Below, in pieces: positions 1,526-64,000 of a DNA stretch of 64,000 bases (its first letter is position 1; every line of letters starts with the position of its first letter). Source of the stretch: a virus (Duplodnaviria; Heunggongvirae; Uroviricota; Caudoviricetes); IMG/VR virus record IMGVR_UViG_3300010383_000113, positions 101,830-165,829 of that record; one strand, given 5' to 3'. The notes under the pieces are model-generated. The model made no database searches. It worked only from the letters and a program-made list of their open reading frames with translations, and was not told where the DNA came from. A program made the translations under genes and the position numbers.

Positions 1526-1555
1526 GGGTCGGTCCTGAAATGAGGAGGGGGCGGG

Positions 1556-1578
1556 AACCTCCCACCCCCTGCTACTCT
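1556..1578 (-). repeat. GC-rich genome-wide motif copy (mRNA sense GAGTAGCAGGGGGTGGGAGG) in the 5' leader
   Basis: plus cccaccccctgctactc; one of about 45 copies. Confidence 0.6.
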
Positions 1579-1587
1579 CCTATTCAC

Positions 1588-1619
1588 ATTATAGGATATC
1601 AAGCTTCGCAACTCTGACA
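1588..1619 (-). promoter_or_regulatory. putative promoter (minus strand: TGTCAG..N20..TATCCTATAAT) in the nrdA-downstream intergenic gap
   Basis: plus-strand attata at 1588-1593 is TATAAT on the minus strand; 33-nt noncoding gap. Confidence 0.3.
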
Positions 1620-3251
1620 GGCCAGCAGGCTCGCCCCCAACTCCTGGGCGGCGTTCACGCTGTACTGGTAGTAGAAAGACTTGATCCCCATCCGCCACCC
1701 CTCGATGTAGAGGGCGTTCACGTCCTTCACGGGCACCTTGGGATGGATCATGAGGTTGAGGGACTGGCCCTGGTCGATGAACTTCTGACGCTGGGCGGCC
1801 TGGACGACCACCTCACGCTGCGAGATCTCGGCGTACGTCTTGAAGACGGCCTTCTCCCGGTCGTCGAGGAAGTCGAGGTGCTGGACCCCGCCGAAGTTCT
1901 TGAGGATCGAATCCCAGACCTCGTCGGTGTTCCTGCCCTTCGACTCCAGGAGGGCTTCGAGCTGGCGGTTCTTGAGGGTGAACTTGCCCTTGGCCCGGTC
2001 CTGGACCTCGTAGTTGGTCCGATACGGCTCGACGCCCTGGGAGACCTGCCCCAGGATGAACGAGGAGGACTTCGTCGGGGCGACGGCCATCAGGGTCGTG
2101 TTGCGTCGGCCGTAGCCCTTCAGGACCTCGGGCTCCCCGAACATCTCCGCCAGCCTCGCCGAGGCGGCGTAGGCGTCGTCGCGGATGGCCCGGAACAGCT
2201 CGACGTTGAGGTACTTGGCCTCCATCGACTCGAAGGGGATCATGCGGAGTTGGAGCAGCGTGTGCCAGCCCATGACGCCGATGCCGAGGGCCCTGTGGCG
2301 TTCCGCGAAGCGGACGGCCCGTTCCATGTAGGGCAGGCCGCCGGCCTTCTCGATGAACTCCGACATCACGGCTTCGAGGACGAAAGTGGCCGTCTCGACG
2401 GCGTCCGTCCCCTTCCACTCGTCGTAGGTGGCGGCGTTCATGCTGAGGAGGTCGCAGACGAACGACTCATCGGGGCCGTCCGGCAGGAAGATCTCGGTGC
2501 AGAGGTTCGAGTGGGTGATCTTGAGTCCGGCGTCCTTGTAGGCGTCGACCGTGGCGTTGTTGGCGTTGTCCGTGAAGAACAGGTACGGATAGCCGACGTT
2601 GGCCCGGCTCGCCAGGACCTTGGCCCAGACCTTCCGCTTGTCAAGGTCCCCGGCGATCATGGACTCCATCCAGGCGTCGGAGATGGTGACGCCGAACGAG
2701 ATGTCCTGGATCGGCGAACCTTCGGACTTGATCGCCAGGAACTCTTCGATGTCTCCATGATCGATCGGAAGGTAGGCGGCGAAACTGCCACGCCGCGTGC
2801 TCCCCTGCGAGATGACGCCGACGAGGGTCTGGAACATCTGCATGAAGTGGACCGACCCGGACGATTTGCCGTTATCCCGGATGTCGCTCCCGCGTGGACG
2901 AACCTCGCCGAAGTAAGCCGACGTGCCGCCGCCGTACTTCGACATCATGCCCACCTCGGCGTGGGTCGACAGGATCGAGGAGACGGTGTCCTCGATATGG
3001 GAGCCGAAGCACGAGATCGGGAGGCCGCGATCCGTGCCGAAGTTCGACCAGATCGGCGACGAGAGCGAGAACCACCCCCGGGCGACGGCGTGCTCGACCC
3101 TGCCGGCCAGTCCGGGGACGCCGATCCGACGCTCGACCTCGCTGGCGATCACCCGCACGCGATCGGGCACGGTCGCCCCTTCCAGCAGGGCGAACGATTC
3201 GAGGAATTTACGCGACAGGTCGTTCAGCCAGACATACTCGGGCGGCGTCAT
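1599..3251 (-). CDS. nrdA: ribonucleoside-diphosphate reductase large subunit (class I)
   Basis: NLCTEI active-site motif, SPIWSNFGT, LGIGVMGWH, C-terminal CQSCEA cysteine pair; start MTPPEYVW (ATG about 3249-3251) overlaps nrdB stop; ORF-track N-terminal extension rejected. Confidence 0.8.
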   Translation of the reverse strand: MTPPEYVWLNDLSRKFLESFALLEGATVPDRVRVIASEVERRIGVPGLAGRVEHAVARGWFSLSSPIWSNFGTDRGLPISCFGSHIEDTVSSILSTHAEVGMMSKYGGGTSAYFGEVRPRGSDIRDNGKSSGSVHFMQMFQTLVGVISQGSTRRGSFAAYLPIDHGDIEEFLAIKSEGSPIQDISFGVTISDAWMESMIAGDLDKRKVWAKVLASRANVGYPYLFFTDNANNATVDAYKDAGLKITHSNLCTEIFLPDGPDESFVCDLLSMNAATYDEWKGTDAVETATFVLEAVMSEFIEKAGGLPYMERAVRFAERHRALGIGVMGWHTLLQLRMIPFESMEAKYLNVELFRAIRDDAYAASARLAEMFGEPEVLKGYGRRNTTLMAVAPTKSSSFILGQVSQGVEPYRTNYEVQDRAKGKFTLKNRQLEALLESKGRNTDEVWDSILKNFGGVQHLDFLDDREKAVFKTYAEISQREVVVQAAQRQKFIDQGQSLNLMIHPKVPVKDVNALYIEGWRMGIKSFYYQYSVNAAQELGASLLACQSCEA

Positions 3252-4304: not shown

Positions 4305-4901
4305 CTAGGCGAGGAACCCGTGCCGCTTCAGGTCGCTGATGAAGTTTCGGTCGACAATCCAGCCGAGATCCGGCCTCGTCCGCCTAATAGTTACCCCGTA
4401 CTTCGCGACGATCTCGGCGAATCGAGCGTCCTCGTTCATGGCCGCGTCGGAGAAGCCGCGACGGTCCGCCATCACCCAGTCCAGGACGCCGTGCTCGGCC
4501 AGATAGAGGGCACAGTCCGAGCAGCACTGGCCCGTCACGTACGCCCTCGCCGTGCCCAGCGAACGCAGGTCCACCGTGCTGTTGTCCACGGCGTTGCGTT
4601 CCGAATGGGATATCAGCGAATAGAGCTTGGGTTTGGTCGTCGCCAGGGCGAGGTCGTCGGACCCCGGAGCGAACCCGTTGTAGCCCGTCCCGAGGACGTG
4701 GTGCGTCGCCTTGTCCACGATGACGCAGCCGTGCTTGGTCGACAGGTCGGGGCTGCGACGCGAGGCCAGGAAGGCCAGGCCCATGAAGTAATCGTCCCAA
4801 CTAGGCCGGGAGAGAGTAGCAGGGAGGGCGGGACCAAGGCGGAAGCCGAAACGCCGGCCGAGGGACGCCAGGACGGCACGGAGATTACGCAGGATCGTCA
4901 C
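4305..4901 (-). CDS. dCMP deaminase (cytidine/deoxycytidylate deaminase family)
   Basis: PSWDDYFMGLAFLASRRS, HSERNA (H-x-E zinc motif), CCSDC; a GC-motif copy lies in the N-terminal codons. Confidence 0.7.
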   Translation of the reverse strand: MTILRNLRAVLASLGRRFGFRLGPALPATLSRPSWDDYFMGLAFLASRRSPDLSTKHGCVIVDKATHHVLGTGYNGFAPGSDDLALATTKPKLYSLISHSERNAVDNSTVDLRSLGTARAYVTGQCCSDCALYLAEHGVLDWVMADRRGFSDAAMNEDARFAEIVAKYGVTIRRTRPDLGWIVDRNFISDLKRHGFLA

Positions 4902-8392: not shown

Positions 8393-8764
8393 TTATTCGT
8401 CGGGAGTTTCGCCGTCTTCGCCCACCCCCTGCTCCTCTTCGGCCTCGGCCGTCTGGGGAGCAGCAGGGAGGGCGGGTTCGTCGACGGCCGTTTCGGCGGA
8501 GGCGGGGTCTTCGGTCGACTCAAGCTTGTCGATGTCGGCCTGGATGTCGGCGAGAGAAGGCCCGGGGACGATATCGGTCAGGTCGACCTCCTCGGCGGGG
8601 ACCTCGACCGTCTCGACCAGTAGTTCGTCGGCGTCGGTTTCGGGCGAGGGCACCAGGTTCTCGAAGAAGGTCGGCGGCAGGACGAGGTTGACCTGGCCGG
8701 TGTAGACGGGGGGCGTGTCGAGGACGTTCTCGGGCTTGGCGGGGTCGATGGGCTGGCTGGACAT
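8393..8764 (-). CDS. acidic hypothetical protein
   Basis: 123 aa, highly acidic; C-terminus EEEQGVGEDGETPDE encoded by an inverted pair of GC-motif copies. Confidence 0.45.
   Translation of the reverse strand: MSSQPIDPAKPENVLDTPPVYTGQVNLVLPPTFFENLVPSPETDADELLVETVEVPAEEVDLTDIVPGPSLADIQADIDKLESTEDPASAETAVDEPALPAAPQTAEAEEEQGVGEDGETPDE
8421..8476. repeat. inverted pair of GC-rich motif copies (CCCACCCCCTGCTCC..N19..GGAGCAGCAGGGAGGGCGGG)
   Basis: direct reading; lies inside coding sequence. Confidence 0.6.
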
Positions 8765-9298: not shown

Positions 9299-9955
9299 TC
9301 AGAGGTCGTAGTAGACCTCCCCGCCCACGGCCGTCTTGGCGTTCACGTAGTCGGCCAGGCGTCGCACGACGGCCCGGTCGTCGCCGCTCCGGACGAAGTC
9401 GACGGAGCCGTTGGGCAGGGCCAGGAGGGCCCAGAACTGCCCCTTCTCCCTCGCCTCGGACTCCACCTCGACGATGGCCCGGTCGACGTCCGGCCTCCCG
9501 TCCCGCGAGGAAGGGTCGGCCCCGAGGAGCCGCTCGATCCCACGCCGGATGCGGCTCGTGTTCCAGCCGCCGGCCGCGAACGCCTTGCCGAACCCCACCT
9601 TGAACCGATACCGGGTCAGGACGTCCAGGGTCTCCACCCCGGGGAACTCCTCGATCTCTTCGAGGACCTCCTCCGAGATGTTGAAGTTGGCGTGGCCCGT
9701 CCAGAAGTCGAAGGCCTTGGTCGTGTCGGCGGCGATCTTGGTGGGCACCAGGCCCGCCGAAGTCGGGATCAGGACCGGGAGGGCGGCCAGGCGATCGGGC
9801 CGGACGAACCCGTCCTCCACCTCGTCGCCGTCGTCGTCCTCGTGGTCGGCCCCCATGTACTCGGACGGCCGGGCCTCGTCCTCGGGCACCCACTCCCTGC
9901 TCCCGCCCAGCGGATGCTGCCAGTATTCCCAGCGGATCTTACGAACCGGCTCCAT
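9299..9955 (-). CDS. hypothetical protein
   Basis: 218 aa ORF; no recognisable motif. Confidence 0.45.
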   Translation of the reverse strand: MEPVRKIRWEYWQHPLGGSREWVPEDEARPSEYMGADHEDDDGDEVEDGFVRPDRLAALPVLIPTSAGLVPTKIAADTTKAFDFWTGHANFNISEEVLEEIEEFPGVETLDVLTRYRFKVGFGKAFAAGGWNTSRIRRGIERLLGADPSSRDGRPDVDRAIVEVESEAREKGQFWALLALPNGSVDFVRSGDDRAVVRRLADYVNAKTAVGGEVYYDL

Positions 9956-10883
9956 GAATCAGTTCCATGATCTGTCGTCCTTCGAGGGCGGCGTTCATGT
10001 CCAGCCCGAAAGTCTTTTCCGGAAATCCCCGCAGTTTTGCGAAGAACTCTCCCTGCTCCCGCTTGTTGTCGACCCCCTCGGCGATCAGGGCGTGTCGAAG
10101 GTCTTCCTCGTCGTATCCGTCCAGGAAGTCGCGAAGGACCGCCATCTCCATCCGCGTGAACGAGACGGCGTCGAACCGATAGTCCAGGAAGGCCTCGAAG
10201 CAGATCGGGGCCACCTTGTGGACGATGCCGGCGATCACGTCGGCGAACGACCGGGTCTGGGCCTGGGCGTCGGGCTTGCACCTCAGCGACAGGAAGTGGA
10301 ACAGGTTGTGGAGGTCCATCTTCCAGTTGAAGTAGGTGTAGGTCGACAGCGGCAGGTCGATCCGGGCCATCTCCCGGGCGATCCCATCCGCCAGGTTCTC
10401 TTTGTAGGACGAGAACGCTTGGCGGGCCAGGAAGTCGTGCAGCTCGACGAAATCCTCGTACTGGGCCGGCGAGACCGGGCCTCCGCTCCCCTGCTTGTTG
10501 TCGGACGACTGGAAGCAGACCTCGGAGGAGCAGGGGGTGTAGACGACGTCCGGCAGTTCGACGTATCGGCCGGAGATCTCATTGGCGTTGCTCGTGCGAT
10601 GTCTCATCCACTGCCGGGCCACGAAGATTGGCATTCCGATGTGGAAGCTCAGCTCGGTGGACTCGAACGGCGAGGTGTGGCGATGCCGCATGAGGTAGCG
10701 GAGAAGGCGTCGGGTGTCGGCGATGCTGCGGGCCTGCGGGGCGATCTCGTAGGAACCTCGGGCGAACCGTTCCACGGCCAGGTCCCCGCCCATGTAGTCG
10801 GTCAGGGCGACGAAGCCGTGGTCGAGTACGGGGAAGTACCTATCGAGGATCTCGTCGGCCGCCGGGATGGCGAGTCTCGGCAC
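9939..10883 (-). CDS. thyX: flavin-dependent thymidylate synthase ThyX
   Basis: RHRHTSPFESTELS (ThyX RHR-x7-S motif), LDHGFVALTDYMGGD; start probably GTG near 10883 rather than the ORF-track ATG at 10958, which would overlap the upstream gene by 74 nt. Confidence 0.8.
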   Translation of the reverse strand: MPRLAIPAADEILDRYFPVLDHGFVALTDYMGGDLAVERFARGSYEIAPQARSIADTRRLLRYLMRHRHTSPFESTELSFHIGMPIFVARQWMRHRTSNANEISGRYVELPDVVYTPCSSEVCFQSSDNKQGSGGPVSPAQYEDFVELHDFLARQAFSSYKENLADGIAREMARIDLPLSTYTYFNWKMDLHNLFHFLSLRCKPDAQAQTRSFADVIAGIVHKVAPICFEAFLDYRFDAVSFTRMEMAVLRDFLDGYDEEDLRHALIAEGVDNKREQGEFFAKLRGFPEKTFGLDMNAALEGRQIMELIHGAGS

Positions 10884-16750: not shown

Positions 16751-16830
16751 GGCCGCCTGCGGCGGCGGAGCAGGGAGGGCTGGGCCTGTGCGTTGCGGCG
16801 ACGTCGTCATGTCCCCCACTCCCTGCTACT
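16751..16830. repeat. hairpin GCCGCCtgcGGCGGC fused to GGAGCAGGGAGGGC, and inverted partner CCCCCACTCCCTGCTACTC 33 nt away
   Basis: direct reading. Confidence 0.6.
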
Positions 16831-17002
16831 CTTCTCCGTCCGGGCTGATCAGGATGGGGGCGACGATCTCTCACGAGGGTCGCGGAGCCGATCCCCGGGG
16901 CGGCCTTCCGGGGGAGGAGCAGGGAGTTCGGGGGAGGGGAAGATTTTCCACGCGGCTTGGCACGAGAGAACGGCACCGTTTTTGCTATTAATACTTCTTG
17001 GA

Positions 17003-19722: not shown

Positions 19723-20381
19723 AGATCTGCTGCGTTTCCGATCTCCACGGCCATCTGCCCGAGATCCCCGACTGCGACCTCCTGCTCCTCGGCGGCGACC
19801 TGGTCCCGAGGTGGGCCCACGAGCCTCTCATCGGCCGATCCTGGCTCGACACGAACTTCCGGCGATGGCTTGACGGTCTAACGAGTCGGTGTCGCGTCGT
19901 CGGCGTGGCGGGCAATCACGACTTCGTCTTCGAGGCCGGGATGGGCGATCTCGCACGCCCCCTGCCCTGGACCTACCTCCAGGACTCGGACTACACAGTC
20001 GGTGGCCTCAAGGTCTACGGGAGCCCTTGGCAGCCCTACTTCGGCGGATGGGCGTTCAACCTCGAAGAGGACGACCTGGCCGCCAGGTGGGAGATGGTCC
20101 CGGGCGACGCGGACATCCTCCTCCTGCACGGCCCTCCCTATCTCCATGGCGACTTGACGCCCGAGGGCCTCCATGTGGGCAGCCCCTCCCTGCTCCGATC
20201 CATCCGGAGGGTCCGACCACGCCTGGTTGTTTGCGGACACATCCATTCGGCTCGCGGCGTCTACGAGGTCGGCGTCACGACGATCGTGAACGCCTCATTG
20301 GTCGACGAGGCCTATCGGCCCATTCATGAGCCGTTCCTGGTCGAGATCGACGGCGACGAGGCCGAGGTCCTTCGGGTGTAA
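19719..20381 (+). CDS. metallophosphoesterase (calcineurin-like)
   Basis: VSDLHGH, GGDL, GNHDF, GHIHSARG; ATGA overlap with previous gene. Confidence 0.7.
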   Translation: MKICCVSDLHGHLPEIPDCDLLLLGGDLVPRWAHEPLIGRSWLDTNFRRWLDGLTSRCRVVGVAGNHDFVFEAGMGDLARPLPWTYLQDSDYTVGGLKVYGSPWQPYFGGWAFNLEEDDLAARWEMVPGDADILLLHGPPYLHGDLTPEGLHVGSPSLLRSIRRVRPRLVVCGHIHSARGVYEVGVTTIVNASLVDEAYRPIHEPFLVEIDGDEAEVLRV

Positions 20382-23439: not shown

Positions 23440-23549
23440 GACGATCGGGCTCCGGTTAGATGGTGATCACCACCCTTCTTATCGGAGCCGTGCCCGTGGG
23501 CCTGCAAGAAAAACGGGAGGAGCAGGGGGTGGTGTCGTCCCGGCCCCGT

Positions 23550-23738: not shown

Positions 23739-23767
23739 CGCCCTCCCTGCTACGCGGCGAAGCCGCC
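23739..23767. repeat. motif-hairpin module CGCCCTCCCTGCTAC + GCGGCgaaGCCGC
   Basis: direct reading; flanks the parS array opposite GGAGCAGGGGGTGG at 23512-23530. Confidence 0.6.
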
Positions 23768-38358: not shown

Positions 38359-38594
38359 CCAACGACCTCCATGGAGGGGGAGGAGCAGGGGGTGTAGGGG
38401 ACGACGTCGTGACGGCGGGTGATCGTCGTGGTGGTCTTGAGGATGCGGAACTCCCAGGCGTTGTCGGGCCGAGACGTGAAGTAGTCGACCTCGGCCTTGG
38501 CCTCGGGCAAACTAAGGTTGTCAGCCCAGACCTCCCAGGAAGTGGCTCCCGGGAGTCGATGGCATACGCAGTAAGTGATCTCAGTGCTTTTCAT
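38355..38594 (-). CDS. hypothetical protein
   Basis: 79 aa; its C-terminal codons form the palindrome CCTCCATGGAGG next to a motif copy. Confidence 0.35.
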   Translation of the reverse strand: MKSTEITYCVCHRLPGATSWEVWADNLSLPEAKAEVDYFTSRPDNAWEFRILKTTTTITRRHDVVPYTPCSSPSMEVVG

Positions 38595-42318: not shown

Positions 42319-42545
42319 TTCGAGGGGCTCCAGAGCTTGAACAGGTGGGCGACCAGGTAGACGGGCAGGAGGAGAGAGCCGACGAACGTAGCGAACCCCA
42401 TGAAGAGGAGCAGGGGGTCTCCCGAATTCACCATGTGGGAGGAGGCGACGAAGCCGAGCTGACAGACGAGGAACGCCAGGGCGATCCAGATGACGGTGAG
42501 GGCGATCTTGTGCTGAATGCGTTTGATCTTGGGGGCTCCTTGGGG

Positions 42546-43551: not shown

Positions 43552-43843
43552 CGTCCCCTGCTCCGCGTCCAAAGGACGCCGCTTCCCTGACCTCGAAGCC
43601 GTGAACCTTGCTCTGGTCGTCTTCGATGGTCACGGCGATCCGATACTCAGGCTCGATCAATGCATTCAGCACGCCGAGCAGTCCGACCTCGCACGAGCCG
43701 TCCTCCCTCGCCCTGACCTGGATCGTAGGATGATCGGCCAGGGCGTCGTTGCAGGGCACCCGATTGAAGACGAGATTGCGAGTCGCCTCGGGATCCAACG
43801 CAAGCATTTCGTTCAGCAGACTTGCGACTTGTTTGGCGTCCAT
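43529..43843 (-). CDS. hypothetical protein
   Basis: 104 aa; AAGGAG 12 nt upstream of ATG. Confidence 0.4.
   Translation of the reverse strand: MDAKQVASLLNEMLALDPEATRNLVFNRVPCNDALADHPTIQVRAREDGSCEVGLLGVLNALIEPEYRIAVTIEDDQSKVHGFEVREAASFGRGAGDDDDSNSR
43552..43579. repeat. motif-hairpin module CGTCCCCTGCTCC + GCGTCCaaaGGACGC
   Basis: direct reading. Confidence 0.55.
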
Positions 43844-43891: not shown

Positions 43892-44347
43892 TCACGATCG
43901 CCCTCCCTGCTCCGTCGCCGCAGGCGACTTCTTCGGGTGTTCAGGTAGCGGCATCCAGTGGGTCACCTTGTCGATCGGAGGTCGTCCGTCGACACCCAGC
44001 CATCTACCATCTTTCTCCTCGCGATTCTTGACGAAGCCCATTTCTCGGACGTTCCCGTTGTCCATGGCCGCCAAAACCCTAACATAGAGCTGATGGTATC
44101 GATGATCGTGAGGGATGGTCGGAAGTTCGGTCTTGACGGAGATCCAAGGCTCGATGTGTTCGTCGGCAGTCTGCATGTTAACATTTCCTGTTCTAAGGTA
44201 CGTGAAGATCATAGGTCGATGATTAGGGCGACCGCCCACAGCGATCACCTCACCATCCGTCCTGGATAAAGCACCGCTCTGCTCGTACGACCGTTCAACG
44301 ACCACACCGTCTTTCTTCACCATAACGAACGAGCTGTTAGTGGGCAT
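43892..44347 (-). CDS. DUF551-domain phage protein (second copy)
   Basis: KVTHWMPLPEHP; ATG 5 nt after TAGCAGGGAGGGCGGCC. Confidence 0.5.
   Translation of the reverse strand: MPTNSSFVMVKKDGVVVERSYEQSGALSRTDGEVIAVGGRPNHRPMIFTYLRTGNVNMQTADEHIEPWISVKTELPTIPHDHRYHQLYVRVLAAMDNGNVREMGFVKNREEKDGRWLGVDGRPPIDKVTHWMPLPEHPKKSPAATEQGGRS
43899..43928. repeat. motif-hairpin module CGCCCTCCCTGCTCC + GTCGCCgcaGGCGAC
   Basis: direct reading. Confidence 0.6.
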
Positions 44348-44567
44348 GGCCGCCCTCCCTGCTACCCGCCGTAGGCGGCACCAGCCGGTCCAACTTCTCC
44401 TCGATCCGCTTGAGCCTCCAGATGATGTGGTGATGGACAGTTGGTCCGTCGCCCCGAGGCTCGTAGTCGTTCGACTCGGGGTTGTCGCAGCCCTGGATTA
44501 GAATCGAGAGCAGAACCAGCGACATGACGGCGAAGTAGAGAAGGGCAGTTTTTAGACCTTCGGTCAT
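44337..44567 (-). CDS. small lipoprotein-like protein
   Basis: signal and LIQGCDN. Confidence 0.4.
   Translation of the reverse strand: MTEGLKTALLYFAVMSLVLLSILIQGCDNPESNDYEPRGDGPTVHHHIIWRLKRIEEKLDRLVPPTAGSREGGHAH
44349..44377. repeat. motif-hairpin module CCGCCCTCCCTGCTAC + CCGCCgtaGGCGG
   Basis: direct reading. Confidence 0.6.
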
Positions 44568-45140: not shown

Positions 45141-45179
45141 GATCGGATCTCCAGGGGTGAAGGGGAGGAGCAGGGAGGG

Positions 45180-46795: not shown

Positions 46796-47041
46796 TCAAC
46801 TGTCTTGCCCCTCCCTGCTCCTCTTTCTCCACGACTCCTCCAGGTATTGGGTCAGAAGTTCACACTCCAGCATGGTCATCGTCGACCACTCCGAGTACAT
46901 GCCGTCCTTGACTTCAGCGTAACGTGCCGGGAGGCCCATTCTGACGGCCTCACAGTAATCTTCATAGGACGCGGCTTTGTGGACCCTGAGAGACGCCCTG
47001 CCCTCCAGGATCATCCTGGCGATAGCCCGCAAGTCAGACAT
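46796..47041 (-). CDS. hypothetical protein
   Basis: start MSDLRAIARM. Confidence 0.35.
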   Translation of the reverse strand: MSDLRAIARMILEGRASLRVHKAASYEDYCEAVRMGLPARYAEVKDGMYSEWSTMTMLECELLTQYLEESWRKRSREGQDS

Positions 47042-47536: not shown

Positions 47537-47793
47537 CAAGAATTCTCCGGAGTAGCAGGGAGGGAAGGGTGATATTCCTTTGTCCTGTCTGGCAGGTCTG
47601 TGTATATAAGAGCCGCATAGACAGAGCCTTGAGTGCCCTGGCGAACATGCTTCCAATATGGACCCTCGGCTACAACCCAGATGTACTCAACGTCCGCCGG
47701 GATTAGGTCCCTGCAATAGTTTGTGTCCGGCAAGGTAAGCACTGGAATGTCAGGACCAAGAAGTAATTTGCGAGCGAGTTCATGTGTGGTCAT
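47536..47793 (-). CDS. hypothetical protein
   Basis: ends PATPENS within a repeated 30-nt junction sequence. Confidence 0.4.
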   Translation of the reverse strand: MTTHELARKLLLGPDIPVLTLPDTNYCRDLIPADVEYIWVVAEGPYWKHVRQGTQGSVYAALIYTDLPDRTKEYHPSLPATPENS

Positions 47794-48401: not shown

Positions 48402-48903
48402 TCCCGTTGGAGATCACGGTCAACCTGCCCTGTGCGAAGGCCTTCAGAAGTTCTTCGAGGAACCGGCAGTCGTAGTGGGCCCCCTCGTAGACGTGCCCAA
48501 GGGTGATGCCGGACGATCCGAGGGTGGAGCACTCAGGGTAGTAATAGCTTCCCGGCTCATCCTCGTAAGAACTTCGCCCATCCCACTCGTAGTCGCCGTC
48601 CTCGGCCCACGAGGTCTTCTCGAACAGGCGGCGGAGGGCTTTGTCCGACATCCCCACCCCCTGCTCCTCCCACTGCATTTCGGTCGTCTCCACCGCGTCA
48701 CTCGCGAGCCGCAGCAGAACGCCGGCATCCTCCAGGACGGTGACGACCTTGGTGATCTTGAAGCGGGAGTATCCCATCGAACGTCGCTCGGCCGCCGCCT
48801 CGACGGCCTGCTCGATCGTGTTGTAGCCGTCGAACAGGCAGAGCCAGGGCGTCGTCCCGTCCGCGTCGTCGACCTGGCCGTACAGGACGTATCCAGTCCG
48901 CAC
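48382..48903 (-). CDS. hypothetical protein
   Basis: 173 aa; an internal motif copy encodes EEQGVGM, so it could be two genes. Confidence 0.35.
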   Translation of the reverse strand: MRTGYVLYGQVDDADGTTPWLCLFDGYNTIEQAVEAAAERRSMGYSRFKITKVVTVLEDAGVLLRLASDAVETTEMQWEEQGVGMSDKALRRLFEKTSWAEDGDYEWDGRSSYEDEPGSYYYPECSTLGSSGITLGHVYEGAHYDCRFLEELLKAFAQGRLTVISNGNEADDA

Positions 48904-49130: not shown

Positions 49131-49552
49131 GAGGTTGTTCCGGGGAGTAGCAGGGAGGGGCGAAGTTTGGTTTCCACTTGGAGTTCACCATGTTCATCTT
49201 GGAAGAACTTGGCGTAGACGACCTCGATATGCAGATGCTCGTTGTAGTAGGTTTGATCCACCCCCTGCTCCAGGCCCGCCAGGGCCTTCTTGTGCAGAGT
49301 TCGAGGGTTCCACCTTCGCCACTTGAACTCGCGAATGGAGCCGGGATCGAAGTTCTTTGCGATACCCTCCCCGTCGTCGTCTGCTGTCAGAAGATCGACT
49401 ATGGCGTCTTCGATGATCTCGTCCGTCGAAGTGAACGAGTAACGCTGGACGGGCTCAAGCAACAGGACAGGCCGGTCGAATTCCCAGCGGGCGTCCCAGG
49501 TCACGGACAGGAAGCGGATGGTCTGGTTCAGGGGTGGGCGATAGTTAGGCAT
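49127..49552 (-). CDS. hypothetical protein
   Basis: start MPNYRPP; CGTCCTACTGT -10-like element at 49560-49575. Confidence 0.4.
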   Translation of the reverse strand: MPNYRPPLNQTIRFLSVTWDARWEFDRPVLLLEPVQRYSFTSTDEIIEDAIVDLLTADDDGEGIAKNFDPGSIREFKWRRWNPRTLHKKALAGLEQGVDQTYYNEHLHIEVVYAKFFQDEHGELQVETKLRPSLLLPGTTS

Positions 49553-50893: not shown

Positions 50894-50924
50894 GGGCTGG
50901 CTTCGCCAGCCGTAGCAGGGAGGG
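50894..50924. repeat. hairpin-motif module GGCTGGCttcGCCAGCC + GTAGCAGGGAGGGC
   Basis: direct reading (opposite orientation to most modules). Confidence 0.6.
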
Positions 50925-52190: not shown

Positions 52191-52220
52191 TTGCCCTCCC
52201 TGCTACGTGGCCGAAGGCCA
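52191..52220. repeat. motif-hairpin module TGCCCTCCCTGCTAC + GTGGCCgaaGGCCAC (intergenic)
   Basis: direct reading, immediately after the TAA of the 52224 gene. Confidence 0.6.
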
Positions 52221-52223
52221 CTC

Positions 52224-53585: not shown

Positions 53586-53634
53586 GAGGAGCAGGGAGGG
53601 CACGTCTCCACCCCCTGCTCCCCGACGAAGTCGG
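53586..53634. repeat. near-perfect inverted motif pair GGAGCAGGGAGGG-8nt-CCACCCCCTGCTCC plus hairpin CCGACgaaGTCGG
   Basis: direct reading; 12-13 bp potential stem. Confidence 0.65.
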
Positions 53635-58368: not shown

Positions 58369-59286
58369 GAGAAGCTCCGAAGGTTGCCGTAGGAATCGAA
58401 GTCGAGGGGCATCACGCCGAAAGGTTGATTGGGCCAGAGCCACAGCATGTCGTCGGCTCGCAGGACGGATTCCGACTTAAAGCTGTCGGTCGTGTAGATT
58501 CCGTCGATATCTTGGTAGAGAACGTCCACACCCTTGGAGAAGATCCCGTGGGTGACGTACAGGAGGACCTTGGAGGCCCCCGCCTTCTTCAAGACCTTGG
58601 CCAGTTCGAGGAAGGTGCGTCCGCCGTCGCAGATGTCGTCGACGATGAGGCAGGCCCTCCCTGCTACCTTGTGACCCTCGGGCAGCTCGGTCGAAAGGAT
58701 GTCGCCCGTCTTCGTGCATCGCACCTTGGTGGCCGTCACCACGTCCAGGCCGTAGGCCGAGGCGGTCTTCCAGGCCTTCTTGTAGGCCCCGGCGTCCGGG
58801 CTGACGATAACCGTCTGGGAATCCTTGAGGACGCCCTGGAGGCCGCTGTGGGCCCTCACAAGGGCATCCTGCTCGATCACCCGGCAGTTGTTCAGGAGGG
58901 CCGGCGTGACGTCCGAGTGAGGGTCGCAGATGATGATGTTGTCGTGCCAGGGATGGTCGTCGATGAGGCGGGCGATCGACTTCAGGGAGAAGGCCTCGCC
59001 GTGTGCCATCCGACGGTCCTGGCGGGCGTACGGGAAGTAGGGCACGACGAGGTTGCAGATCCCACCAAAACTGCATTGCTCGTTCAACAGATCGAGGAGG
59101 AGCAGGAGGTGAATGACATCGTCGCTCGACTGGAGCCTCGCCGTGATGGTTACGTCGCCGGAGAAGTGCTGTGGGACCAGGGAGGCCTTGGCCTGAATCT
59201 CTCCTCCAGAGAACTGGAAGGAATTGGTGTTGAGGATCTCGCGTTCCCAGGGTTTCGGCCAGTGGGAGATTTCGATCTGATTCATG
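58365..59286 (-). CDS. ribose-phosphate pyrophosphokinase homolog (Prs-like; possibly ADPR-pyrophosphate synthetase)
   Basis: start MNQIEISHW; VVPYFPYARQDR and LIVDDICDGGRT (PRPP-binding loop). Confidence 0.7.
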
Positions 59287-59722: not shown

Positions 59723-59835
59723 ACGACCTGGTAGGTGCGACTGCCGAGGTCGAGGAGGTCGGGAGCAGGGAGGGCGGCCAGGTCGAGCATCTCGCAGACG
59801 CGACAGCCCTCTAGTCTGTAACGGGTTCTCGGCAT
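59602..59835 (-). CDS. zinc-ribbon mini-protein
   Basis: CRVC...CRRCG. Confidence 0.3.
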   Translation of the reverse strand: MPRTRYRLEGCRVCEMLDLAALPAPDLLDLGSRTYQVVCRRCGSGGPKWYTRAGAVNGWNGIMRRLSNSIKVRGTVK

Positions 59836-60565: not shown

Positions 60566-61002
60566 GATTCATCTCCCAGGGCGTTCTTCTCCATCTCGAT
60601 GGCCCTCTTGAGCCTCTTCAGGGCGACCCTCAACGCGAGGATGGCCGACGCCACCTCCAGTTCGACCTCATCACCCCCTGCTCCTCCCTCCCTCTCGGCC
60701 ATCTCAAGAGTGAGAACAGCGAGGCGGTGGTGAAAATCGGCCAGGCGATGAGATGGATCTTGCTGCGTATGAAATGTGACCAGTTCGTCCTGGGCCTTCC
60801 GTACCAGGTTGTAGTCGCTTCGGTCAAAGTAGACCATGCTGAAGTTCTGGTCTTCTTCGATGCAGTTGTGCACGTAGTTGACCAGTTTTACGACAGCACT
60901 CTCTGTTTTGCTTTCCGTGCTTTCCCCCTGGCCGATCTCGTCGGGTGCACTTTCAGATTCTAGTTTTGGCTCCGGCGAGAACAGCTTGGTTTCCTCAATC
61001 AT
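60562..61002 (-). CDS. acidic hypothetical protein
   Basis: 146 aa ORF. Confidence 0.4.
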   Translation of the reverse strand: MIEETKLFSPEPKLESESAPDEIGQGESTESKTESAVVKLVNYVHNCIEEDQNFSMVYFDRSDYNLVRKAQDELVTFHTQQDPSHRLADFHHRLAVLTLEMAEREGGAGGDEVELEVASAILALRVALKRLKRAIEMEKNALGDES

Positions 61003-62153: not shown

Positions 62154-62410
62154 TCGCGATCGATGGACAGGGCATCGAGCATCTCAAGAAGCTCGTTATA
62201 GCCATCCTTCAGGAGTATGCCGTCGACGAAGATCGCCAGATTCTTGTTCTTGTCATCGACCACGATTTGAATCCTCAGTTCCTTGCCGGTCCTGCTGTTT
62301 TGCAGGCTGGTTTTCGTCCGATAGGTGTCTAGGGGTATCAGGCCACTCCCGGCGGTGATGGTAGGATCGGTCCTGTCGATGGGGCCACGGTAGAAAGTCA
62401 ATTCAGCCAT
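62111..62410 (-). CDS. hypothetical protein
   Basis: 99 aa ORF. Confidence 0.35.
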   Translation of the reverse strand: MAELTFYRGPIDRTDPTITAGSGLIPLDTYRTKTSLQNSRTGKELRIQIVVDDKNKNLAIFVDGILLKDGYNELLEMLDALSIDREWIRIENMDKGRCE

Positions 62411-62759
62411 TAGCGAGTTCCTCAGCGTGCTCTTTGAGTGCTTGAAGTTCTTCTCGGGCGGACCTCACGTCTTGAGGGCAGATGAACCCTCGATGGGTCT
62501 CATGCGTGCCTTTGGCCACATAAACAATGGCTTGGACACCCTCGTGACCGCTCGACGATTCAAACTCCGAGATGAGTAGGTCGATGATTTCTGTCGATGG
62601 TGTGTTCTTAAGTGCCGGCCGACGATTCCACTTCAGAAGGCTGTCCGTCCAGATGTCGCAGGACTCACAGCCATAGGTGTTGTACCACCAGCCAGTTTCA
62701 TCTAGGGTTCGCTCGCTGGTCGCCGCCTCGCCGCAGAATGGGCAATTCTCAACTATCAC
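62403..62759 (-). CDS. Lar-family-like zinc-ribbon protein (possible restriction alleviation)
   Basis: N-terminal NCPFCGE...CESC resembles the Lar-family KPCPFCG signature. Confidence 0.4.
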   Translation of the reverse strand: MIVENCPFCGEAATSERTLDETGWWYNTYGCESCDIWTDSLLKWNRRPALKNTPSTEIIDLLISEFESSSGHEGVQAIVYVAKGTHETHRGFICPQDVRSAREELQALKEHAEELANG

Positions 62760-63349
62760 GTCTCGCTCTCCTCTGTTCCGGGTGATTGGTTTAGTAGTTC
62801 ACGCAATGTAGCGACAGCGATGGAGACTGGCGGTTGTGAGGTGTGGGTGTTGATCTCGACCCTCCATTCGTTCGGCATGTCGGCCATGACGAGCAACAGA
62901 AGCGATCGGGCACCGTCCATCTGAGCCTTCGTTAAATTGTTGGCGTCACGGGCCTCGGTTGACGCTTGCTCAAACTTCGCCGCGAATGCCCGGGGCTTGT
63001 ATGAACGCACCTCGCCATCGGGCATGGTGACGATCCAATCACCTACGTCCACGGGGCACTTGCCGCTACGGGTTTGGACTCCTGGTAGTGGGACTCCATC
63101 GAAAGTACAGCCGACCACTGCGGGGTGATCTCCCCACTTAAACCATTGAATAGCTTCAACTTCGAATGACCTCGGTCGATATCGTCCAACATTCATTAGT
63201 CGAATTGCCTTTCGTCTTGGTACTTCCAACGCTCGGAGGATCTGATCTCCGGATTGGGCATTGTCGTCGCTGAGGAATGCTTTCGTCAGGGCGTGACTGT
63301 CTTGGTCGAGCAGTCTTCGGACTTCGGGCGACATGGGGACTTTTGACAT
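62756..63349 (-). CDS. hypothetical protein
   Basis: 197 aa ORF. Confidence 0.4.
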   Translation of the reverse strand: MSKVPMSPEVRRLLDQDSHALTKAFLSDDNAQSGDQILRALEVPRRKAIRLMNVGRYRPRSFEVEAIQWFKWGDHPAVVGCTFDGVPLPGVQTRSGKCPVDVGDWIVTMPDGEVRSYKPRAFAAKFEQASTEARDANNLTKAQMDGARSLLLLVMADMPNEWRVEINTHTSQPPVSIAVATLRELLNQSPGTEESET

Positions 63350-63385
63350 CAGTCTGTCGACCTTTTCTTTGGTTGGTCTAAGTGG

Positions 63386-64000
63386 TCAATGACGCAGTTG
63401 CAATTCGATACCGCTTCTTGACGTGCCCACCCCCTGCTCCTCTTCGCGTTTCTGATCGTACTTCCAGACGCCCCAGGCCACGGCCCAAAGGGCCCAGATC
63501 AGGCCGTATGAGGGAGCCGTCAGATTGTAGTCGTAGATGCTCTCGAAACCGAAATCGCAGGCAATCCTCGTCGCCTCTTCCTGGCCGTGGTCGGCATATC
63601 CCGCGACATCTGCCCCCTCAAGACGCTCGTCTTCCGTCCCGTCTTCTACCATCTCCATGATGGCCTCGCGGAAGCGTTCGGGGCTGTATCGCTCCATCCC
63701 ACGGCCGACGTCGGCGGCGACCACCTTCTCGCCCCAGTAGTACGGATTGATGGTCAGGGACGCTTGGGGCCCGGCCTGCCGGAAGAACTCGAACATGTCC
63801 TCCGTCCGCCGGAAGACGTAGCAGCCGAGGTCTCCGCTCAAGGCTAGGTGGTCGGGCCAGGTCGTCAGGCTGTAGCTGGAGAAGCCCGTGCCCGGCGTCG
63901 CGAATCGGATGTGGCGGTGGACGCCCTGGTCCAGGACCACCTCCATGACGTGGCCACGCACCTCACGCAAGAATTCCTCAAGGCTCGGCTCGAACTTCAC
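63386..64000 (-). CDS. hypothetical protein, 5' end beyond window
   Basis: partial; C-terminus KREEEQGVGTSRSG encoded through a motif copy at 63425. Confidence 0.4.
   Translation of the reverse strand: MKFEPSLEEFLREVRGHVMEVVLDQGVHRHIRFATPGTGFSSYSLTTWPDHLALSGDLGCYVFRRTEDMFEFFRQAGPQASLTINPYYWGEKVVAADVGRGMERYSPERFREAIMEMVEDGTEDERLEGADVAGYADHGQEEATRIACDFGFESIYDYNLTAPSYGLIWALWAVAWGVWKYDQKREEEQGVGTSRSGIELQLRH

Follow-up and report, generated by a model that had tools for sequence, protein, structure and literature searches.

A 13-base signal occurs about 45 times in a 64-kb window of the genome of an uncultivated large phage-plasmid, and it is genuine and restricted to this phage lineage. (The window is the whole stretch of DNA that was analysed, out of a 172-kb genome; the gene calls are heuristic and were made for this analysis.) We tentatively propose, as a possible explanation in which our confidence is low, that the signal is a DNA-level site that is read strand-specifically by a putative lineage-encoded factor and that has been co-opted as a ribosome-binding site.

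The repeat has sharp boundaries, and its 13-nt consensus is G-K-A-G-C-A-G-G-G-R-G-K-G. These 13 nt hold all of the information content and the flanks are at background, as is usual for a recognition site but not for a mobile element. The window contains 27 matches to CCCTCCCTGCT with at most one mismatch (2.06 expected) and 43 copies of the strict pattern [GT]AGCAGGG[AG][GT] (about 1.4 expected). The latter expectation is 1.5 under an order-1 Markov null and 1.3 under an order-3 null, or roughly 30-fold enrichment, and it is 6.7 at order 5, which already absorbs part of the motif. The sequence-only reading that first described the motif had judged it to be far beyond chance, and the enrichment survives at all three orders. 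Nearly all of the coordinates in that reading agree with our copies to within about 10 nt; its positions 12050, 29465, 32633, 43552, and 59100 are degenerate variants of the 13-mer, and copies at 1222, 9891, 10047, 10527, 20184, and 26134 were absent from its list. Once the motif was masked, no other over-represented word was found in the window.

The 13-mer comes in two co-varying variants, GGGAGGG and GGGGGTG, and the spectrum of variants I and II is identical for both orientations. Because the copies that are C-rich in the mRNA, which are beyond the reach of Shine-Dalgarno (SD) shaping, show the same spectrum, the variants are properties of the duplex site.

The motif core is common to two distant relatives, L012 (GC 50%) and L014 (GC 57%), whose flanks of the core differ as "dialects." (The comparison with these two covered about 20 kb of each.) L014 is syntenic with the window at 30–66% amino-acid identity, and its dUTPase-like ortholog has the same core at the place equivalent to our copy 39772..39784 (+), a variant that is C-rich in the mRNA and occupies codons 3–7 of the dUTPase-like gene. 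As a repeat, the motif is absent from other relatives, RepA-type plasmids, and IMG/VR and GTDB genomes. None of the bacterial genome stretches that we searched has more than one copy, and the density is 0.026 per kb in 0.88 Mb of GC-rich bacterial DNA versus 0.70 per kb in the window, so the motif is not a generic host repeat. These counts also rule out a host uptake sequence. A DNA-uptake role had been suggested, and in its genomic statistics the motif does resemble uptake sequences, with evenly spaced copies that show no bias in orientation, form inverted pairs, and are in excess in non-coding DNA (PMC1939737).

As had been noted, the motif occurs on both strands, and the orientations are split about evenly: in the mRNA, 23 of the 43 copies read G-rich and 20 C-rich. 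In contrast, mycobacteriophage stoperators (PMC9283540) and start-associated sequences (PMC3203893) are families that are each defined by one orientation relative to transcription. The suggestion that the copies are operators analogous to either family therefore holds as a functional analogy only. There is a precedent for a monomeric phage repressor that acts on a 13-bp asymmetric site at more than 20 dispersed sites (PMC9283540). As candidate binders, the two sigma factors would call for sites in one orientation only.

Orientation alternates along the genome at 31 of 42 to 35 of 44 transitions (p = 5 × 10−5 to 1 × 10−3), or at 41 of 60 transitions with a relaxed definition of the 13-mer (p = 0.005). 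Neighboring copies alternate because each strand bears its own evenly spaced series, with an interval of about 2.6–3.1 kb (same-strand spacing has a coefficient of variation of 0.52 and 0.65, versus 0.96 when placed randomly). As the spacing is Poisson-like when both strands are pooled, each strand is read on its own. A point against a DNA-binding factor is that one blind to orientation would have no need of separate spacing on each strand, and the alternation could instead come from avoidance of close direct repeats. Another live alternative is a network of SD/anti-SD pairing in RNA, in which alternation could reflect the need for complementary partners: a G form and a C form that share a polycistronic RNA would inevitably be able to pair, and the G-rich copies lie in exact SD register. 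However, neighboring copies show neither extra flank identity nor class matching, which argues against co-evolved RNA partners as well as against local inverted duplication.

Gene junctions are enriched for copies. The sequence-only reading often placed the G-rich form just before an ATG, and at least eight genes do have the G-rich form in true SD register, with the GGRGG core ending 4–6 nt upstream of the start codon, which is the normal SD spacing of this genome. A site that is G-rich on the mRNA strand offers two SD cores (GGAG and GGRGG), and one orientation of the motif serves as a ribosome-binding site. The class I copy 21810..21822 (−) lies in the last codons of parB and is the SD of the next ORF (ATG at +15); the class II copy 39073..39085 (−) sits within the final codons of the dUTPase-like gene and has the same relationship to the next gene (ATG at +15). 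Three class I composites with hairpins are the SDs of genes 27271-27969 (27975..28000, −, ATG at +17), 33312-33569 (33573..33598, −, ATG at +15, with 13-mer and hairpin both within the 3′ end of the upstream ORF), and 43892-44347 (44353..44378, −, ATG at +17). There is also a start codon just beyond 43552..43579 (−, ATG at +15), 43901..43928 (−, class I, where a GTG at +17 starts a 15-codon mini-ORF), 48655..48667 (−, class II, G-rich in the mRNA, ATG at +15, 48651), and 9891..9903 (−, an A8/T10 variant, G-rich in the mRNA, GTG at +13), which is 39 nt past the stop of a thymidylate-synthase-like gene.

Start-proximal placement does not extend to long intergenic regions, where the motif is directly 3′ of the upstream stop codon and away from the downstream start. 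Among the copies past a stop codon, the class II copy 1563..1575 (−, G-rich in the mRNA) is 27 nt past the stop of the ribonucleotide reductase (RNR) large subunit and 49 nt before the next ATG, and a complementary C-run follows to give a terminator-like hairpin. The class I composite 30904..30931 (−) is 21 nt past a stop codon and is also followed by a terminator-like hairpin. The class II copy 34026..34038 (+, C-rich in the mRNA) is 26 nt past a stop and 36 nt before an ATG, and its C-run pairs with GGTGGG upstream. The class I copy 45167..45179 (+, C-rich in the mRNA) is 6 nt past a stop codon, and a separate GGAG SD and GTG 45140 follow. Two class I composites bracket three small genes: 52194..52221 (−), 21 nt past a stop codon, and 50895..50924 (+), which is wholly inverted, with the C-rich form 8 nt past a stop codon and then the hairpin.

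Other copies that are C-rich in the mRNA precede genes: 4816..4828 (+, class I, intergenic, with ATG 4784 41 nt on), 38382..38394 (+, class II, ATG 38358 33 nt on), 42407..42419 (+, class II, about 90 nt ahead of the start of the SPFH gene), 47552..47564 (+, class I, ATG 47536, with a GGAG SD of its own, 25 nt on), 49147..49159 (+, class I, ATG 49130 26 nt on), and 59762..59774 (+, class I, upstream or at the 5′ edge of a PRPP-synthetase-like gene). The class I composite 35814..35841 (−) is about 105 nt upstream of gene 35276-35710. A stretch of 19 kb with co-directional genes showed neither sigma-70 promoters nor canonical terminators.

About a dozen copies, in both orientations, lie within long coding sequences, where about one was expected. 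The thymidylate-synthase-like gene has a G-rich variant (10047..10059, −) and, 478 nt away, a C-rich class II copy (10527..10539, +); the repA-like gene has a C-rich G7 variant (25735..25747, +) and, 401 nt away, a G-rich variant (26134..26146, −). C-rich copies also lie inside a metallophosphatase gene on the + strand (20184..20196, −, class I), within CDS 30934-31845 (31094..31106, +, a variant), and near the 3′ end of ORF 1166-1525 (1222..1234, +, variant GGAGCAGGGAGAG). G-rich copies lie within a coding sequence at 49259..49271 (−, class II), within the PRPP-synthetase-like gene (58655..58667, −, class I), within ORF 60562-61002 (60672..60684, −, class II), at the 3′ end of ORF 46796-47104, with an HNH-HTH gene about 130 nt downstream (46809..46821, −, class I), and in the final codons of ORF 63386-64000, with the next start about 75 nt on (63428..63440, −, class II).

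Three inverted pairs that had been reported are borne out (8423/8460, 16767/16817, and 53588/53609). In the first, a class II copy (8423..8435, −, G-rich in the mRNA) within the final codons of ORF 8393-8764 faces variant GCAGCAGGGAGGG (8460..8472, +, C-rich). In the second, a class I copy, part of a composite that is antisense to local transcription (16752..16779, +), is separated by a 37-nt loop from a variant at 16817..16829 (−); a further variant (16916..16928, +) shares this non-coding region. In the third (53588..53634), the G-form (53609-53621, −) and the C-form (53588-53600) make a stem of about 13 bp in the mRNA, followed by CUCUUCUUUGU, and the whole looks like a terminator.

Triloop hairpins fused to the motif had been claimed in at least 14 cases. 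Fusion is confirmed at the lower count of 12, at zero spacing, versus 0.09 expected (P = 6 × 10−22), where we required a perfect stem of at least 5 bp with a 3-nt loop directly abutting the 13-mer. Hairpins precede the 13-mer at 16752-16766 (GCCGCCtgcGGCGGC; 13-mer 16767-16779) and 50895-50911 (GGCTGGCttcGCCAGCC; 13-mer 50912-50924). They follow it at 23754-23766 (GCGGCttcGCCGC), 27988-28000 (CCGCCttcGGCGG; 13-mer 27975-27987), 30917-30931 (GTCGGCtacGCCGAC), 33586-33598 (CCGCCgatGGCGG), 35827-35841 (GTCGCCttcGGCGAC), 43565-43579 (GCGTCCtttGGACGC, after the degenerate 13-mer GGAGCAGGGGACG at 43552-43564), 43914-43928 (GTCGCCtgcGGCGAC), 44366-44378 (CCGCCtacGGCGG), 52207-52221 (GTGGCCttcGGCCAC), and 53622-53634 (CCGACttcGTCGG). 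Across these 12 hairpins, the stems are 5–7 bp and covary, all 66 base pairs are Watson-Crick without a single G.U, a C:G pair invariably closes the loop, and 10 of the loops, taken on the C-rich strand, are GNA. The C(GNA)G geometry on the C-rich strand matches the extrudable DNA-hairpin promoters of phage N4, for which the requirements for extrusion are known; this geometry allows short inverted repeats to extrude from supercoiled DNA (PMC4496689). An RNA processing or stability element, which had also been suggested, is possible, though stems free of G.U pairs and the presence of GNA loops on the C-rich strand favor DNA over RNA. Single-stranded-DNA initiation signals are a live alternative. 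Also, the hairpin sub-class is biased 10:2 toward the sense orientation (P = 0.04), which points to a transcription-linked role for the hairpin, either at the RNA level or promoter-like.

One pair of copies brackets a parS-like array upstream of parA, as had been reported. The array consists of four palindromes (CTTTCTYGARGAAAG) at 23547-23735; in mRNA order, the left-hand bracket is a class I composite 31 nt past a stop codon (23741..23766, −, 13-mer 23741-23753) and the right-hand bracket is a class II copy that reads C-rich in the mRNA and leads into a T-run (23519..23531, +). ParB and RepA each have a separate site array of their own, so they are unlikely to bind the motif.

The earlier view that no single classical function fits the motif stands. 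Under the explanation that we tentatively prefer, the motif would be a 13-bp asymmetric recognition site for a sequence-specific factor encoded in the phage lineage, and recognition would occur on DNA and be strand- or direction-specific. The two orientations would be maintained as separate even series, with about one site per 2.6–3.1 kb. Sites would settle where a G/C-rich 13-mer is tolerated: after stops, in the ribosome-binding position, in the arms of terminator-like hairpins, and occasionally in frame in long genes. The site, where G-rich on the mRNA strand, has been recruited as the ribosome-binding site for at least eight genes, and the hairpin in the 12-site sub-class probably presents or strengthens the site. 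The most likely job of the bound protein would be genome-wide control of transcription, in a system related to the mycobacteriophage stoperators but working in two directions. (The two-way version is an extrapolation, as known stoperators are strictly in one orientation.) One orientation could act on RNA polymerase as it transcribes in the sense direction, and antisense or read-in transcription could be the target of the other. If true, such a role would suit a plasmid-prophage with ParAB and RepA.

The 13-mer that the sequence-only reading had described as recurring far beyond chance is genuine, and it has more features than were described there (alternating orientations, regularity on each strand, and the extrudable GNA geometry of its hairpins). 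With up to one mismatch, CCCTCCCTGCT matches the window 27 times, as compared to 2.06 expected. The strict pattern [GT]AGCAGGG[AG][GT] has 43 copies, while Markov null models of order 1, 3, and 5 predict 1.5, 1.3, and 6.7 copies, respectively. The excess of the 13-mer is about 30-fold over the order-1 and order-3 nulls and still about 6-fold over the order-5 null, which rules out a compositional artefact; the enrichment proposed earlier thus survives a compositional null. The short core AGCAGGG occurs 59 times in the window, as compared to about 12 by chance (our own estimate from base composition). As 14 of these copies lack the 3′ extension, which is about the number expected by chance, it is the long motif, rather than the short core, that forms the functional unit.

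The information content is limited to 13 positions, G-K-A-G-C-A-G-G-G-R-G-K-G, and the flanks on either side are at background. The G at position −1 is conserved in 98% of copies, and positions 8 and 10 covary, which gives two classes (class I, GGGAGGG, n = 20; class II, GGGGGTG, n = 13). Once the motif was masked, we found no further over-represented word in the window. Like REP and BIME elements, the motif is often intergenic, occurs in both orientations that often alternate, and is accompanied by hairpins. However, REPs span about 35 nt as imperfect palindromes, are conserved over their full length, and are abundant in the host chromosome, whereas only 13 nt of the motif are conserved, its stems differ among copies, and no host copies were found. 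We rejected a REP- or MITE-type element because the similarity stops at 13 nt (the flank identity between copies is about 0.29).

Genes in the window were called with our own codon-usage caller, which is heuristic, so we compared every copy of the motif with the local open reading frames (ORFs) by hand. By these calls, nearly all of the genes are on the − strand. (The exception is a + strand island at 17495-20381, which encodes a 595-aa protein without a Pfam or PHROG match, a small ORF, and a metallophosphatase.) Relative to this nearly unidirectional array, 23 of the 43 strict copies have the G-rich strand in the mRNA (G-forms) and 20 have the C-rich strand (C-forms), and the spectrum of variants is alike in the two sets. 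Along the window, the orientation alternates far more often than expected by chance. This holds for the strict 9-mer (31 of 42 transitions, permutation p = 0.0008), for AGCAGGGRG (35/44, p = 5e-5), for GCAGGGRGKG (28/35, p = 5e-5), and for the 13-mer with up to two mismatches (41/60, p = 0.005). Neighbors that are less than 1.5 kb apart have opposite orientations in 27 of 29 pairs, while those farther apart split 8:7. The copies on each strand are also spaced more regularly than random (CV 0.52, P = 0.0008, and CV 0.65, P = 0.012), with mean same-strand spacings of 3.1 and 2.6 kb. Pooled over both strands, the copies are Poisson-like, and each strand is roughly independent of the other. Neighbors have no extra flank identity (0.296 vs. 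0.290) and are not matched by class (9/35 vs. an expected fraction of 0.33), so they are neither local inverted duplications nor co-evolved partners. A replication skew of the KOPS or Chi kind was rejected, as there is no strand switch or skew anywhere in the window.

According to the automatic gene calls, 37% of copies have their centers in non-coding sequence, as compared to 16% of random positions (p = 6e-4), and 26% are followed by a called start within 45 nt, as compared to 8.8% (p = 9e-4). These percentages are higher after manual curation because several starts were mis-called. The G-forms fall into three groups. First, for at least eight, the start codon falls between +13 and +17, so that the GGRGG core ends 4-6 nt before the start (only 2 nt separate them for the copy at 9891). 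Second, some lie 7-31 nt past the stop codon of the upstream gene, with the next start distant; these are often followed by a partial complement that gives a terminator-like hairpin. (Examples of such stop-adjacent G-forms are at 1563, 23741, 30904, and 52194 in the window, and at 1345, 9001, and 14868 in L012 and 3928 in L014, which are related phage contigs that carry the motif.) Third, about six G-forms are inside coding sequences. The C-forms lie 4-26 nt past stop codons and/or 21-37 nt ahead of starts, with a separate GGAG Shine-Dalgarno sequence (SD) between the C-form and the start, and about seven are within coding sequences. We also observed the motif-encoded peptide EEEQGVG near the C-termini of two unrelated ORFs (8423-8435 and 63428-63440). 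They share this ending because a class II G-form is read in one frame (GAG GAG CAG GGG GTG GGC).

The spacing of the first group is that of an SD. In L012, the start is at +9/+10 from the motif and the first SD core, GGAG, is in use, instead of at +15/+17 as in the window. A distance from motif to start that varies among relatives fits use as an SD and speaks against a fixed promoter geometry; for this reason, and because there are two orientations, we rejected a promoter for the phage's sigma factors. One reading of the SD register, with its mostly ATG starts, would be a purely translational element, in which only the G-forms function (as an extended SD or a stand-by site) and the C-forms are by-products. 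A precedent is the SAS of Cluster K mycobacteriophages, which is likewise a 13-bp asymmetric repeat with an SD core, a few nucleotides ahead of the ATG starts of non-structural genes, with a subset of copies after an inverted repeat (ESAS); it is common to subclusters and absent from the host (PMC3203893; PMC12699233). The order of hairpin, motif, and start in the window resembles that of ESAS plus SAS (PMC3203893). However, SAS has a single orientation and is nearly always adjacent to a start, whereas about half of the motif copies are C-rich in the mRNA and many are adjacent to stops or within coding sequences. The single orientation of SAS is not seen for our motif, and about 8 of the 43 copies, with spacings of 4-6 nt, have the SD core 3-7 bp upstream of a start as SAS does; the others are elsewhere. 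Also, the arms of ESAS are 17 bp long, with a conserved sequence and a variable spacer, and do not support base-pairing, while the hairpins in the window have stems of 5-7 bp and a fixed 3-nt loop, and their sequence varies with perfect covariation. The motif serves as the SD of about 8 of the 113 genes in the window, mostly with ATG starts, and 74 of the 113 have ordinary SDs (spacing mostly 5-9 nt). Many G-forms are 50-1000 nt from any start or are just past stop codons. Above all, 20 C-forms, where about 0.7 are expected, cannot be by-products. The orientation statistics leave a role as an SD alone close to refuted, and it is the least credible of the readings that we considered.

The hairpins are the other conspicuous feature. 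At 12 copies, a hairpin with a 3-nt loop and a perfectly paired stem of 5-7 bp lies upstream of the motif (in the G orientation), as compared to 0.09 expected by chance (P = 6e-22), and the end of the hairpin abuts the invariant G(−1) exactly. The stem sequences vary while the pairing is retained (13 double-sided changes vs. 3.1 in shuffles). As these stems were selected to be perfect, the statistical test to rely on is the enrichment, and not the covariation. Copies have either a perfect stem or no stem, and G·U is absent from all 66 base pairs. The pair that closes the loop is C:G in all 12 hairpins. The loop is T-N-C, or G-N-A on the C-rich strand, in 10 of 12, as compared to a background of 8.7% (P = 1e-9), and its central base is A in seven, T in three, and C in two. 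In 10 of these 12 copies the G-form is in the mRNA sense (P = 0.04), which puts the GNA hairpin on the template strand; class I motifs also account for 10 of the 12. Because the 13-mer is fixed to the base of the stem, its distance to the loop changes with the length of the stem. Generic DNA folding parameters do not distinguish GAA from TTC loops.

A long imperfect hairpin at 17000-17032 (GGAAGCTTTATTGCCC-GAA-GGGCATAAAGCTCC) has a C(GAA)G loop, as in the motif's hairpins. This hairpin, with T-runs and A-runs on its flanks, is located in an AT-rich patch, within the divergent non-coding region that separates the − strand genes from the + strand island.

Neither sigma-70 promoters nor canonical terminators are associated with the motif over 19 kb of genes that share one direction. 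We found two promoter-like sites in these 19 kb, as compared to 5.3 expected, and none at a copy of the motif. The mini-hairpins are followed by the 13-mer and not by a U-tract as in intrinsic terminators; U-rich tails are present only at 53588/53609, at 23519, and in a few of the cases in which a G-form is followed by its partial complement. A UUCG-type RNA tetraloop was rejected because its register does not fit the stems (by inspection).

The SD register, the complementarity of neighbors, and the alternation fit equally well with a network of SDs and anti-SDs at the RNA level, which we consider a possible but rather doubtful account. In long polycistronic transcripts, the G-form would be a strong double SD and the C-form an exactly complementary mimic of the anti-SD, so that alternation gives each G-form a complementary neighbor. 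Like a "zip code," the motif would let junctions that are 0.02-1.6 kb apart pair with each other, which would couple or limit translation or would make double-stranded processing sites like the stems that bracket rRNA. Besides the SD register of at least eight genes, with two SD cores that are used in differing registers in the window and in L012, this would explain why the C-forms that are 21-37 nt ahead of starts are directly 5′ of an ordinary GGAG SD that could be sequestered. It would also explain the complementary neighbors in 27 of the 29 closest pairs, the local G/C pairs that give stems of about 13 bp, and the roughly equal numbers of the two forms. The invariant GKAGCAGGG is common to all G- and C-forms, as would be needed if the partners are interchangeable. 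However, neighbors are not matched by class and have no extended complementarity, and when we folded the RNA around all of the copies, we found no common structure. The mini-hairpins contain no G·U pairs, and their loop bias is meaningful only on one strand, which in 10 of the 12 is antisense to the mRNA. Ribosomes would keep unwinding the copies within coding sequences. Finally, pairing by itself would not explain why the sequence is the same in distant relatives.

For the geometry of the mini-hairpins, the only rationale that we know of comes by analogy from bacteriophage N4. The hairpin promoters of the N4 virion RNA polymerase have a stem of 5-7 bp, a 3-nt loop, and a C:G closing pair (PMC4496689). 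The closing pair and a sheared 5′-G:A-3′ pair within the 3-nt loop allow such short stems to extrude from supercoiled DNA, and the bases of the stem are not conserved and need only stay paired (PMC4496689). Similarly, in the window, the loop ends are 5′-G...A-3′ on one strand, and a variable paired stem adjoins a conserved sequence. All 12 hairpins have the N4-type stem and closing pair, 10 have a GNA loop, and 10 are on the template strand. In contrast, the purine at the center of the N4 loop and the fixed distance from start to loop are not features of the hairpins in the window. The start of N4 transcription is measured from the loop or from position −8, whereas our 13-mer is anchored to the base of the stem and most of its copies have no hairpin. 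Also, N4-like phages have about three such promoters at one end of the genome and a virion RNA polymerase of 3,500 aa, and we found no virion or single-subunit RNA polymerase within the 64-kb window.

By this analogy, the motif could be an initiation signal in single-stranded DNA: a phage polymerase would read the 13-mer and the C(GNA)G hairpin on the hairpin strand. Either an RNA polymerase, as at the early promoters of N4, or a primase with sequence specificity, like that of plasmid ssi sites, could fill this role. Once extruded from supercoiled or replicating DNA, the hairpins would place the polymerase on the adjoining conserved sequence; bare copies would be weaker or auxiliary sites, and the spacing would reflect the length of a transcription unit or of an Okazaki fragment. 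This would account for the match of stem, loop, closing pair, and loop ends to what extrusion and stability demand in N4, for the position of the GNA hairpin ahead of a gene, on its template strand, in 10 of the 12 composites, and for stem covariation beside a fixed 13-mer. The regular spacing of 2.6-3.1 kb on each strand, the absence of sigma-70 promoters from the region, and the DnaG-type primase and Pol III alpha that the relatives encode are consistent with it as well. Nevertheless, we think that this is unlikely. Only 12 of about 45 copies have the hairpin, the motif is anchored to the stem base and not to the loop, and the central base of the loop is sometimes not a purine. Neither a giant polymerase like that of the N4-like phages nor a primase was found in the window. 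If the copies were promoters, then the C-forms would lead to antisense transcription, and if they were priming sites, replicative primases are known to read 3-5 nt and not 13.

Database comparisons place the motif in a narrow lineage. The window had no match among INPHARED phages (megablast and tblastn), a protein search of IMG/VR gave no relative, and a metagenome scan returned only distant homologs of the window's SPFH protein. Related contigs were reached through SPFH homologs. L012 and L013 (GC 50%), which are identical haplotypes, have 0.43 copies per kb of TTGGAGCAGGGRG and its complement CCTCCCTGCTCCAAA. L014 (GC 57%), which is syntenic with the window over 11 genes whose products are 30-66% identical in amino-acid sequence, has 0.19 copies per kb of CCCCCTGCTCCA. 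No copies were found in five other relatives with similar SPFH identity, and scans of IMG/VR with several dialects of the motif gave only single chance matches. A dUTPase-like gene has a C-form in its first codons both in the window (39772-39784, MTTPLLP) and in L014 (11742-11748, ...TTPLLQ); the nucleotides CCCCTGCTCC are retained although the proteins are only 59% identical. The relatives that share SPFH also have accessory modules that the window lacks (L014 735-1868; L140 1-3102; L142 7411-8586; and L141/L143). These include IS605-type TnpB genes, a Ro60/TROVE-vWA protein, a ProQ-like protein, RtcB, and a PrkA/DUF444/SpoVR module.

The sequence-only reading had noted that an equal density in the host chromosome would mark the motif as a generic host repeat, and we made this comparison. 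When GTDB representative genomes were scanned for GKAGCAGGGAGGGCG, at least 120 stretches matched, and the matches listed were only single ones in unrelated taxa. The density was 0.026 extra copies per kb in the 0.88 Mb of listed GTDB stretches, as compared to 0.70 per kb in the window. Also, three plasmid-like contigs with the RepA type of replicon, from a possible host lineage, have no copies or two (0-0.09 per kb). These low densities argue against a generic host repeat. On these contigs (L384, L385, and L386), which belong to bacterial metagenome-assembled genomes, homologs of RepA (about 30% identity) lie beside ParA, and nearby genes encode PEP-CTERM, sulfatase, PATR, and dockerin domains. 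These neighbors hint that the host range of this replicon type is Planctomycetota- or Verrucomicrobiota-like.

The even spacing on each strand also raises the question of whether the motif is a self-marking signal, analogous to Chi or to DNA uptake sequences. The 13-mer would be read directionally by a translocating enzyme or other DNA machine (a helicase-nuclease, a packaging or partition-condensation machine, or a discriminator of self from non-self), so a correctly oriented copy would be needed within a few kilobases in both directions. The G-rich sequence is reminiscent of known Chi sites, which are G-rich. The equal orientations, the evenness on each strand, and the roughly 7% of copies that belong to hairpin-forming inverted pairs would all be expected. 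Indeed, the uptake sequences of Neisseriaceae and Pasteurellaceae (DUS and USS) are short asymmetric words in many-fold excess, with no orientation bias and unusually even spacing; some form inverted pairs that give terminator-like hairpins, and they combine a non-coding excess with in-frame copies in genes and with dialects (PMC1939737). The motif has the same lack of orientation bias, even spacing, inverted pairs, and non-coding excess, and with its in-frame copies and dialects it carries that genomic signature (PMC1939737). But DUS and USS are signals in the host chromosome for the competence machinery, whereas our motif is confined to a phage lineage and, among the GTDB matches listed, is not a repeat in any bacterial genome. 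Self-marking also does not demand the association of many copies with stop and start codons, 13 nt far exceeds the known lengths of Chi, and no candidate machine was found. We regard this reading as improbable.

We give as little credence to the idea that the 13-mers are recombination linkers or the ends of cassettes. They would be crossover points for the shuffling of small accessory genes, as with the PeSL elements of T4-like phages, or, in a variant, inverted termini that are recognized by a phage recombinase or an HUH-type enzyme. PeSLs place a stem-loop and an expression signal between small accessory genes and may be recombination linkers (PMC4122927), which makes them a precedent. Pairs of inverted termini would yield alternation and near-equal numbers of the two forms. 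In the window, the copies at 52194-52221 and 50895-50924 enclose three small genes, and the dUTPase-like gene lies between 39772 (C) and 39073 (G); in L012, 6536 (G) and 7077 (C) enclose two genes. Where the window and L014 differ, the differing blocks tend to be delimited by copies (by inspection), and relatives contain IS605-type TnpB genes. However, a PeSL spans about 50 bp and includes an early promoter of the sigma-70 type, and PeSLs occur in one orientation only, while the motif has 13 conserved nucleotides in both orientations and no promoter-like site at its copies. Nothing is alike past the 13 nt, and the stems differ at the two ends of a would-be cassette. G-to-C and C-to-G intervals are alike in their length distribution and both contain genes (partly by inspection). 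Copies within conserved coding sequences do not fit, and we saw no recombinase or transposase in the window.

The gene content of the window points to a phage that also maintains itself as a plasmid. The window belongs to a metagenomic JGI contig of 171,667 bp, on which its SPFH, sigma, and RepA-like proteins find themselves at 100% identity; our analysis covered this roughly one third of the genome and two short relatives. GC falls from about 0.65 at the left to about 0.57 at the right. The gene families that we identified are ribonucleotide reductase, a thymidylate-synthase-like protein, two sigma factors, ParA, ParB, a RepA-like initiator, a Dam-like methylase, the SPFH protein, an HNH-HTH protein, and NAD-salvage and PRPP enzymes; searches of the window gave neither an Rfam family nor a tRNA. 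Four palindromes of 15-17 bp (CTTTCTYGARGAAAG), spaced by about 55 bp (23547-23735), lie directly upstream of parA (22636-23439). They are probably the parS or operator array of the ParAB system. They are unrelated to the canonical parS (TGTTNCACGTGAAACA), a search for which was negative in the window. A G/C pair of 13-mer copies brackets them. Immediately upstream of the RepA-like gene (25206-26606), at least five direct repeats of about 21-25 nt, with a consensus of about CCTACTCGGTTTGACTCCA, lie at 26689-26890; these iteron-like repeats probably mark a plasmid-type replication origin. As ParB and RepA have these separate arrays, which are unrelated to the 13-mer, we rejected the 13-mer as their parS or iteron. 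The sigma factors are encoded at 20424-21194 and 8764-9240. The only match for the larger one is to Sigma70 region 2, and among 5.8 billion proteins it has no homolog but itself at E ≤ 1e-20. Two NAPRTase/NamPRT-like genes and a PRPP-synthetase-like gene form a module for NAD+ salvage (54290-59657), of a kind that is known from some large phages. Finally, two − strand ORFs of about 300 aa (5468-6388 and 6395-7369), without family matches, lie in a stretch of lower GC (5470-7420) and are absent from the gene model because of their atypical codon usage. They may be a recent acquisition.

Among the closest known analogs of the motif is the stoperator of Cluster A mycobacteriophages, which is bound by a monomeric repressor of the L5 gp71 type. 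Like the motif, stoperators have more than 20 copies, mostly in short intergenic spaces, a consensus that is specific to the lineage, and a temperate phage as their setting (here, a plasmid-prophage of the ParAB/RepA type). The motif shares with them a conserved asymmetric block of 13 nt with more than 20 dispersed copies (43 strict ones). On the other hand, the orientation of a stoperator is strictly tied to the direction of transcription, and reversing the 13-bp asymmetric site abolishes its function (PMC9283540), while the orientations of the motif are about 1:1, alternate, and are not correlated with the direction of transcription. The sequences are dissimilar, and stoperators neither overlap SDs nor are fused to hairpins. 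As stoperators and SAS both have a single orientation, the motif is neither of these in the strict sense. Among about 30 proteins of the window that we scanned, none had a repressor-like match.

With these comparisons in mind, our tentative preference is that the motif is a site that is read strand-specifically by a putative factor encoded by the lineage. Both forms are equally enriched and have the same variants, the 13 nt are sharply bounded, and relatives have their own dialects, which suggests that what is read is the duplex or each strand, and not that the RNA has two unrelated functions. The copies within coding sequences, the regular spacing on each strand, and the DNA-like features of the hairpins argue for recognition at the level of DNA rather than RNA. 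In the most plausible version, the factor would control transcription in both directions in the manner of a stoperator repressor, in a plasmid-prophage, and the G-rich orientation would have been co-opted as a ribosome-binding site.

The motif belongs to the family of dispersed asymmetric phage repeats, and such short repeats are among the few cis-regulatory "grammars" that are legible directly from phage genomes. To our knowledge, stoperators are the only repeats of this kind with a proven mechanism, and SAS is unexplained 15 years after its description. The motif is a third, independent example, from an uncultivated lineage of phage-plasmids of about 170 kb. As no known system does, it joins alternating orientations and a regular series on each strand to use as an SD in one direction and to a fused mini-hairpin with a rare loop of the extrusion type. 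We did not find the combination of alternation, regularity on each strand, and extrudable GNA hairpins in the papers that we read on stoperators, SAS, N4, PeSL, and uptake sequences. If the copies do initiate synthesis from single-stranded DNA, then both strands would have regularly spaced initiation points, and a mechanism that is known from the three promoters of N4-like podoviruses or the two ssi sites of RSF1010-type plasmids would have been made into a general grammar for the expression or replication of a large phage-plasmid. Because the sites are many, short, and sharply bounded, the competing models give clean and cheap predictions, and the outcome would be a new type of global phage regulator, a code of long-range RNA pairing, or a wider use of DNA hairpins for initiation.
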